Of a stretch of DNA of 64,000 bases, positions 29,453-29,986 are shown one piece after another. Made by a program: the position numbers and the translations under genes. Where the stretch lies: sequence record PQ505080.1; one strand, given 5' to 3'. The notes beneath the pieces are model-generated. The model saw only the letters and a program-made list of their open reading frames with translations, made no database searches and had not been told where the DNA came from. Numbering within the stretch: the stretch's first letter is position 1; the number at the start of each line of letters is the position of its first letter. This stretch comes from Escherichia phage HMD-6.

Positions 29453-29986
29453 TCATTTCAAGTCTGCCTCTGGTGGTGCCAACCACATAAATGGCGGCAA
29501 GTCTAGACGGTTTTTCTTGTCCCATACAAAATATGCATATGCCTGCCCATCCGTTCTACCATTGGATTGGAATGACGGACGCTTAGATATTGTGATCACA
29601 GTGGTAGGTGCATTATCAAGCCACCATTCAAATCTGGCCTTGCTTTCCAGAAAATTAAGACGCAAAAGCATAATAACTACATCGGCATCTTTCAACGCCT
29701 TGTCTACAAACTCACGAGCCAAGCTGTACGGTGGGTTGGTGATAATACAGTCAACATGGTTGTATTCTGTATTCAGATAGTCAACACCTTCTTGGATTTC
29801 TCCCCATGCAGATCCTAACGGCATACGGGAGTAGAACACGCCTGAGGCGCTATTCCTGCAAGGCTCTAAGTAGGTCCAGTCTTCTGGGAACGGAATAAGG
29901 TCATACAGCCCTTCTGCACACCACTCCGGTGTCACATACTCGTCGTAAGCGTTACGTTGTTCATCAGGTTTTCTAGCACAAGTCAT
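29453..29986 (-). CDS. putative N6-adenine DNA methyltransferase (small, NPPY motif)
   Basis: IITNPPYSLAREF catalytic motif IV. Confidence 0.55.
   Translation of the reverse strand: MTCARKPDEQRNAYDEYVTPEWCAEGLYDLIPFPEDWTYLEPCRNSASGVFYSRMPLGSAWGEIQEGVDYLNTEYNHVDCIITNPPYSLAREFVDKALKDADVVIMLLRLNFLESKARFEWWLDNAPTTVITISKRPSFQSNGRTDGQAYAYFVWDKKNRLDLPPFMWLAPPEADLK

Follow-up and report, generated by a model that had tools for sequence, protein, structure and literature searches.

Two minus-strand genes in a 64,000-nucleotide stretch of Escherichia phage HMD-6 (PQ505080.1; the whole stretch is referred to here as the window) quite probably encode stand-alone, SAM-dependent DNA N6-adenine methyltransferases whose substrate is the replicating phage genome, with GATC as the site of the smaller one (ORF A) and GTAC as that of the larger one (ORF B). 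The small enzyme is already characterised in a sister phage, and for it the finding is confirmed, ordinary and already known. Both genes are also annotated already as putative N6-adenine DNA methyltransferases in rV5, V5, FV3 and BASEL phages. The rV5 genome paper makes no mention of methylation or restriction. The window itself is a segment of a Vequintavirus (rV5/FV3-like) genome, from an E. coli myovirus of the species FV3: an 18.5-kb region around these genes is 98.5% identical to vB_EcoM_SYGMH1 and is covered to 80% or more by 113 phage records.

The coordinates and motifs given for the two genes in a preliminary description (NPPY in ORF A; NPPF and EPSAGKGSF in ORF B) were confirmed (Table 1). 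When all 533 stop-to-stop segments of the window were scanned with two family profiles, only ORF A and ORF B matched, each also weakly matching the other's family profile, and no other long ORF in the window has an (N/D)PP(Y/F) motif in the sequence context of a methyltransferase. Profile-profile alignment of the two catalytic domains with hhalign (probability 98.2%, E = 3e-14) indicates distant homology and therefore two different enzymes of one superfamily, with an additional C-terminal domain of ~100 aa in B. This degree of motif conservation and profile matching is far beyond chance. Both proteins have the class I SAM-methyltransferase Rossmann fold and the gamma order of motifs, in which motif I lies N-terminal to motif IV (residues 40-51 before 84-87 in A and 34-43 before 85-88 in B), and this order is conserved across the families of both. 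Fold and motifs together establish both as exocyclic-amine (adenine-N6 type) methyltransferases of gamma order and leave the choice between a DNA and an RNA substrate to other evidence.

Table 1 Coordinates of the two methyltransferase genes and their main features in the window.
Feature	Coordinates	Strand	Description
ORF A	29453-29986	-	ATG start, 177 aa; orphan GATC-specific DNA N6-adenine methyltransferase (from the identical Bas51 protein), minimal gamma-order catalytic domain
ORF A motif I region LEPCRNSASGVF	29834-29869	-	SAM-binding loop, residues 40-51; translation and family alignment
ORF A catalytic motif IV, T83-N-P-P-Y87	29726-29740	-	NPPY at 29726-29737; translation and alignment
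ORF A leader	29987-30031	-	Hairpin and Shine-Dalgarno sequence, read directly from the sequence
ORF B	44388-45194	-	TTG start, 268 aa; predicted to be an orphan DNA N6-adenine methyltransferase of type II kind and gamma class (TaqI/Eco57I-like); C-terminal domain of ~100 aa
ORF B motif I VEPSAGKGSF	45066-45095	-	Residues 34-43; translation and alignment
ORF B catalytic motif IV NPPF	44931-44942	-	Residues 85-88, within the invariant GNPPFG; translation and alignment
ORF B leader	45195-45235	-	10-bp terminator-like hairpin (45235-45212) and GGAGG Shine-Dalgarno sequence

The evidence for ORF A comes from Bas51 (Vequintavirinae, BASEL; Escherichia phage WalterGehring, MZ501111), for which we compared the genes of the whole genome with the window. 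In a 2025 study in PLoS Biology (PMC12548924), an 'N6 adenine methyltransferase' of this phage was found to trigger Retron-Asa1 and Retron-Squ1: retron escape mutants mapped to its gene, the engineered substitutions D69G, D79G and T83P each abolished retron defence and the protein was toxic on expression in E. coli. Nanopore 6mA calling on Bas51 DNA in the same study recovered a GATC motif that was nearly gone in the T83P phage. Methylated adenines numbered 1405 at GATC, 509 at GTAC and 576 in other contexts in the wild type, and 35, 511 and 349, respectively, in T83P (PMC12548924, S4 Table).

Of the four annotated methyltransferases of Bas51, bas51_0176 alone combines D69, D79 and T83 (at these positions, the ortholog of ORF B has Q, A and I, the 441-aa enzyme C, G and E, and the Dcm-like enzyme F, A and I). 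ORF A is this protein: 177 of 177 residues are identical, a ClpP-like protease gene lies upstream in both phages and there is no difference at the protein level, although the window derives from another isolate of Vequintavirus, one belonging to the FV3 species. The published mutations fall on conserved residues of ORF A. T83, N84, P85 and P86 are invariant in an alignment of 53 diverse homologs, T83 directly precedes NPPY, and D69, the motif III aspartate, is nearly invariant (at least 90%) in the alignment of family A. With 703 GATC sites in the Bas51 genome, 1406 adenines are available for methylation. The published count of 1405 thus represents essentially complete methylation, and because that count drops to 35 in a Dam+ host, the mark is written by the phage enzyme and not by the Dam of the host. 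Given this experiment on an identical protein, ORF A is almost certainly an orphan GATC-specific DNA m6A methyltransferase. From what is known of the family, SAM would be bound at motifs I-III (in A: EPC..SG, E63 and D69), and the target adenine would be flipped into the (N)PP(Y/F) pocket before the methyl group is transferred to N6.

Database comparisons of ORF A gave phrog_799 ('DNA methyltransferase') in PHROGs (E = 5.1e-67) and, in Pfam, EcoRI_methylase (PF13651; 20.1 vs 26.4 bits) and the small phage family Dam (PF05869; 19.2 vs 28.1 bits), both below their gathering thresholds. Neither ORF A nor ORF B reached the cut-off of any curated DNA adenine-methylase family in Pfam/NCBIfam (PF07669, PF13651, PF05869, PF02384), and PF02086, the alpha-class Dam family, matched neither ORF A nor any of 53 members of its family. 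Across family A, the Pfam matches fell on EcoRI_methylase (18 members), Dam (17), Eco57I (9) and N6_Mtase (2) on the DNA side and on RrnaAD (1) and UPF0020 (1) on the RNA side, a distribution that favours a DNA substrate. The best PADLOC match of ORF A was at 1e-3 (model PDLC03297). A single-sequence search of the PDB found nothing for ORF A, and the family A profile retrieved M.TaqI first (1e-5), followed by ErmC' (5e-5) and type I M subunits. The AlphaFold model of ORF A (pLDDT 89.4) stops after the catalytic fold, without a separate target-recognition domain.

ORF A is flanked by the ClpP-like protease gene and small hypothetical genes. Its leader consists of a terminator-like hairpin after the ClpP-like gene (AAAGCCCTC-TTCG-GAGGGCTTT; this hairpin was not listed by the consensus hairpin scan) and a GGAG Shine-Dalgarno sequence 7 nt before the ATG. 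At 27704-28231 on the minus strand, the window also carries the counterpart of the Bas51 'putative glycosidase' bas51_0171 (51% identity, E = 3e-65), in which a premature stop contributed to escape from Retron-Asa1 (PMC12548924). As this allele is strongly diverged while the neighbouring methyltransferase is identical, it may be a variable defence-related gene.

ORF B matched phrog_5172 in PHROGs (E = 3.2e-125; labelled 'unknown function' in PHROGs v4) and had sub-threshold Pfam matches to Eco57I (PF07669; 17.7 vs 25.3 bits) and MTS (15.8 vs 23 bits). Its match to the PADLOC MTase_II model PDLC03255 (E = 3.8e-33) extends over residues 8-253, on profile positions 2-249 of 269, and by profile assigns ORF B to the type II methyltransferase group. 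Among PDB sequences, a single-sequence search found M.TaqI only (E = 0.06), and the family B profile found the archaeal METTL5-like protein Ta1320 (1.5e-3) and then M.TaqI (0.04). M.BseCI, MmeI, M.TaqI and CamA superpose on 228-252 of the 268 residues of its AlphaFold model (AF2; pLDDT 93.4), and the C-terminal domain (residues ~165-268, ~100 aa), a candidate target-recognition domain, superposes only with DNA methyltransferases. G84, N85, P86, P87 and F88 are invariant in an alignment of 52 diverse homologs. Motif III reads ANFL in the rV5 clade and DFL in most relatives, and N71 (44980-44982, minus strand) takes the place of a conserved aspartate whose usual contact is the adenine of SAM.

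The DnaQ-like exonuclease gene, the leader hairpin and a GGAGG sequence 4 nt before the TTG follow one another upstream of ORF B. Support for the TTG start comes from this Shine-Dalgarno sequence, from the conserved N-terminal residues D8, Y11 and T12 and from public annotations, which use this codon too. A DnaQ-like exonuclease/EndoVII block borders the gene on one side and ThyX/Nrd nucleotide-metabolism genes on the other. In the closest relatives, nrdD (anaerobic ribonucleotide reductase) is found in two parts with an HNH or homing endonuclease gene between them, and the nrdD CDS of Bas51 is annotated as joined; judging by its correspondence with L001 8563-11448, the window likely has the same split at ~33500-36500.

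A scan of bacterial and archaeal genomes returned 278 relatives of ORF B. In 23 of the best 80 of these, which come from several phyla, a REase_II-like gene lies immediately downstream on the same strand. In the case of the homolog P0231, the downstream ORF (216 aa) overlaps the methyltransferase gene and is recognised by a type II restriction-enzyme model of PADLOC (5e-11). Taken with the type II model match of ORF B itself, these predicted restriction-modification (R-M) gene pairs favour a DNA substrate for B. Since these bacterial relatives are paired in this way and the window holds no partner, the phage gene is an orphan derivative. The downstream partner is a protein of ~200-280 aa (for example at L007 5000-5650, L079 3779-4405 and L059 3779-4423) whose family is invariant at 35 positions, among them a QRRLQCS block. 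The partner matched nothing in Pfam and nothing in the PDB, PabI included, either as a single sequence or as a 19-sequence profile, and probably represents an uncharacterised restriction-enzyme family.

For the metagenomic homologs P0186, P0096, P0237, P0110 and P0045, the neighbourhoods were phage-like or giant-virus-like only and contained no nuclease. P0186 is found on contigs of 250-530 kb (for example L003, ENA NODE_15, 253 kb) that have very few Pfam hits and also carry ankyrin-repeat, ART-PolyVal and GGDEF genes, which suggests that jumbo phages, giant viruses or symbionts carry the B family as well. Many B homologs (for example P0128, P0131 and P0139) have a precomputed match to PF26055, which may be an EDM2-like methyltransferase domain; this match was left unused in the classification.

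Both enzymes had been described beforehand as lacking cognate nucleases, and we likewise found none linked to A or B: the nearby nucleases are homing or recombination enzymes, no restriction endonuclease gene adjoins ORF B in the window, and a relative of the bacterial partner nuclease is absent from the window (best tblastn E = 0.69).

The proposal that two different enzymes imply two specificities agrees with the methylome of the sister phage, which contains two fully methylated adenine motifs, GATC depending on A and GTAC independent of it; the link from GTAC to B is the step that we infer. The Bas51 genome has 258 GTAC sites, or 516 adenines, against published methylated counts of 509 in the wild type and 511 in T83P. 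Since inactivation of A leaves GTAC methylation unchanged, a second enzyme exists. E. coli K-12 is not known to encode a GTAC methylase. The motif is not assigned to any gene in PMC12548924 or in the later papers found by a literature search, and a marine metaepigenome study and a review of R-M systems contain nothing on a B-type GTAC enzyme. Of the other three methyltransferase genes of Bas51, two are of adenine-methylase type and come into question. The ortholog of ORF B is bas51_0200 (258 of 268 residues identical, 95.6%, tblastn). A 441-aa enzyme encoded outside the window, bas51_0070 (MZ501111 64456-65781), matches PF01555 (4e-42) and the PADLOC model MTase_III (1.5e-205) and has the Mod subunits of H. 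pylori and EcoP15I as its nearest solved structures; by these matches it is clearly a beta-class type III Mod-like adenine methylase. The remaining gene, bas51_0074 (254 aa; MZ501111 67042-67806, also outside the window), is annotated as a Dcm-like C5-cytosine methylase and had no family match in Pfam or PADLOC.

Two other readings of the enzymes themselves were weighed. It is very improbable that one or both are RNA (rRNA/tRNA m6A) or protein (HemK-type) methyltransferases, even though the catalytic cores of A and B are about as close to METTL5, PH1948, ErmC' and KsgA as to DNA enzymes. Weak matches to the MTS and HemK profiles, RrnaAD matches in 5 of 52 relatives of B and the label 'predicted RNA methylase' given by JGI to some B homologs point the same way, and the phage also has genes for tRNAs, an RNA ligase and a ribosome hibernation factor. 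A profile classification as an RNA or protein methyltransferase had been named in the preliminary description as what would count against it, and the searches yielded sub-threshold matches only (B to MTS with 15.8 bits, A to HemK with 12 bits); no RNA-methylase family reached its curated threshold for A or B, and RrnaAD matched neither. For A, the methylome published for T83P phage DNA rules out such a function as the main activity. An RNA methylase is unlikely for B too, given the full-length match to PDLC03255, the R-M pairing in bacteria, the position of the gene among replication and nucleotide-metabolism genes and the C-terminal domain, which superposes with DNA methyltransferases only, whereas the RNA enzymes superpose on the catalytic core alone (~150 aa). 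The name N6-adenine DNA methyltransferase thus stands for both, for A by experiment on the identical protein and for B, less directly, through the type II model, the R-M-paired relatives and the structural superposition. A separate question is whether B is a DNA adenine methyltransferase of another specificity, with the ortholog of bas51_0070 methylating GTAC and B either targeting a site hidden among the 'other' adenines or being poorly active in the laboratory. We regard this as unlikely. It would fit the presence in Bas51 of three adenine-methylase-like genes for only two clearly reported motifs, the persistence of 349 'other' methylated adenines in the T83P mutant, the N in place of the usual D in motif III of ORF B and the strong, intact PF01555 domain of bas51_0070. 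Type III Mod enzymes typically recognise asymmetric 5-6-bp sites and methylate one strand. GTAC, by contrast, is palindromic and carries the methyl mark on both strands at ~99% of sites, and we therefore assign it to the type II-type enzyme B, whose family includes type II R-M pairs. The 349 'other' sites are compatible with an asymmetric Mod motif or with base-calling noise, and the Mod-like enzyme would account for some of them. From the sister-phage methylome and the class of the enzyme, then, ORF B is rather likely to write GTm6AC. In the bacterial loci, the observed/expected ratio of GTAC was 0.66 with and 0.74 without a nuclease partner, a shift no stronger than that of CTAG or TTAA, and the best 80 of the 278 bacterial relatives included no Helicobacter, Campylobacter or Pyrococcus locus.

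With GATC and GTAC both methylated, progeny DNA would be shielded from the GATC-cutting (MboI/DpnII-type) enzymes of natural hosts, and GTAC-cutting enzymes of the RsaI/PabI/HpyAXII type, perhaps also of the KpnI type (GGTACC), would be blocked as well. Protection from GATC-type and GTAC-type restriction in natural hosts seems to us the most likely benefit, a view we hold with moderate confidence. As far as we know, the well-characterised systems among EcoKI, EcoCFT_I, EcoRI, EcoRV, EcoP1_I and EcoCFT_II have recognition sites that contain neither GATC nor GTAC. For this reason, the 'exceptionally susceptible' behaviour of Vequintavirinae towards these six systems in the BASEL study (PMC8594841) narrows anti-restriction to site-specific protection and does not refute it. 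GATC occurs 357 times in the window (observed/expected 1.10) and is thus not avoided; GTAC, with 133 sites (0.68), is the second most under-represented 4-bp palindrome after CTAG (0.57), in spite of its full methylation in the sister phage. The main role of the two enzymes might instead lie in transactions of the phage DNA and not in anti-restriction, which we consider doubtful; possible examples are the blocking of MutH nicking at unmethylated GATC, a packaging mark or signal, a replication signal and the timing of gene expression. The Dam enzyme of phage P1 is required for pac-site cleavage. Such a role would also suit the lack of general restriction resistance in Vequintavirinae, the abundance of unavoided GATC and the location of both genes in the region of replication and nucleotide metabolism. 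Weighing against it, methyltransferase mutants of Bas51 reached titres only 2-3-fold lower on a strain without retrons (differences marked significant; PMC12548924, S4 Table, Fig 4c), so that the phage can do without the enzyme under laboratory conditions, and a further specificity unrelated to the first (GTAC) is more readily explained as a guard against a second restriction specificity. The demonstrated consequences of A activity are costs only, namely retron triggering and toxicity; Retron-Asa1 and -Squ1 sense A activity and then abort the infection.

In rV5-like phages used in typing, biocontrol or therapy, Gm6ATC and GTm6AC are present at essentially every site, with effects on the restriction enzymes that can cut their DNA, on the hosts that restrict them and on the defence systems (retrons) that sense them. 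Some 20-30 unannotated 'Campylobacter phage' records (host Campylobacter jejuni; MG065690, MG065644, MG065672, MG065682 and others) show 93-95% identity to this E. coli Vequintavirus region, with both methyltransferases present in near-identical form; the probable explanation is mislabelling or contamination by coliphages.

More tentatively, B and its bacterial relatives may constitute an uncharacterised type II R-M family that makes GTm6AC, and the partner, directed at GTAC or a related palindrome, may have a new restriction-enzyme fold. A, for its part, may be among the smallest sequence-specific DNA methyltransferases known, at 177 aa and with no recognition domain, yet with GATC methylation that is complete and specific. 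GTm6AC, the product proposed for B, is also made by M.PabI and M.HpyAXII, which belong to type II systems of the restriction-glycosylase kind (PMC10273834), and the partner nuclease of the B relatives has no sequence match to R.PabI, the GTAC restriction glycosylase. In fold and motifs, A and B are both gamma-order and M.TaqI-like, and motif I of ORF A (LEPCRNSASGVF) resembles EPACAHGPF of M.TaqI, while sequence identity to M.TaqI, M.BseCI, CamA, the MmeI methylase domain and the Eco57I family is only 14-20%. M.TaqI has 421 aa and a recognition domain much larger than the ~100-aa C-terminal domain of ORF B, whereas A has no separate target-recognition domain at all.

Like E. coli Dam and the Dam of phages T4 and T2, A produces Gm6ATC. 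Dam has the alpha order and DPPY and belongs to PF02086, whereas A has the gamma order and NPPY, so that the specificity for GATC is all they have in common; by motif order and profile, A works like Dam without being a member of the Dam family. Methylation of phage DNA at GATC by phage-encoded enzymes is a known theme, within which A is an orphan enzyme. Further orphan DNA methyltransferases, bas51_0070 and bas51_0074, belong to the modification repertoire of the same phage genome, bas51_0070 differing from A and B in being beta-class, with DPPF before FGGSG.
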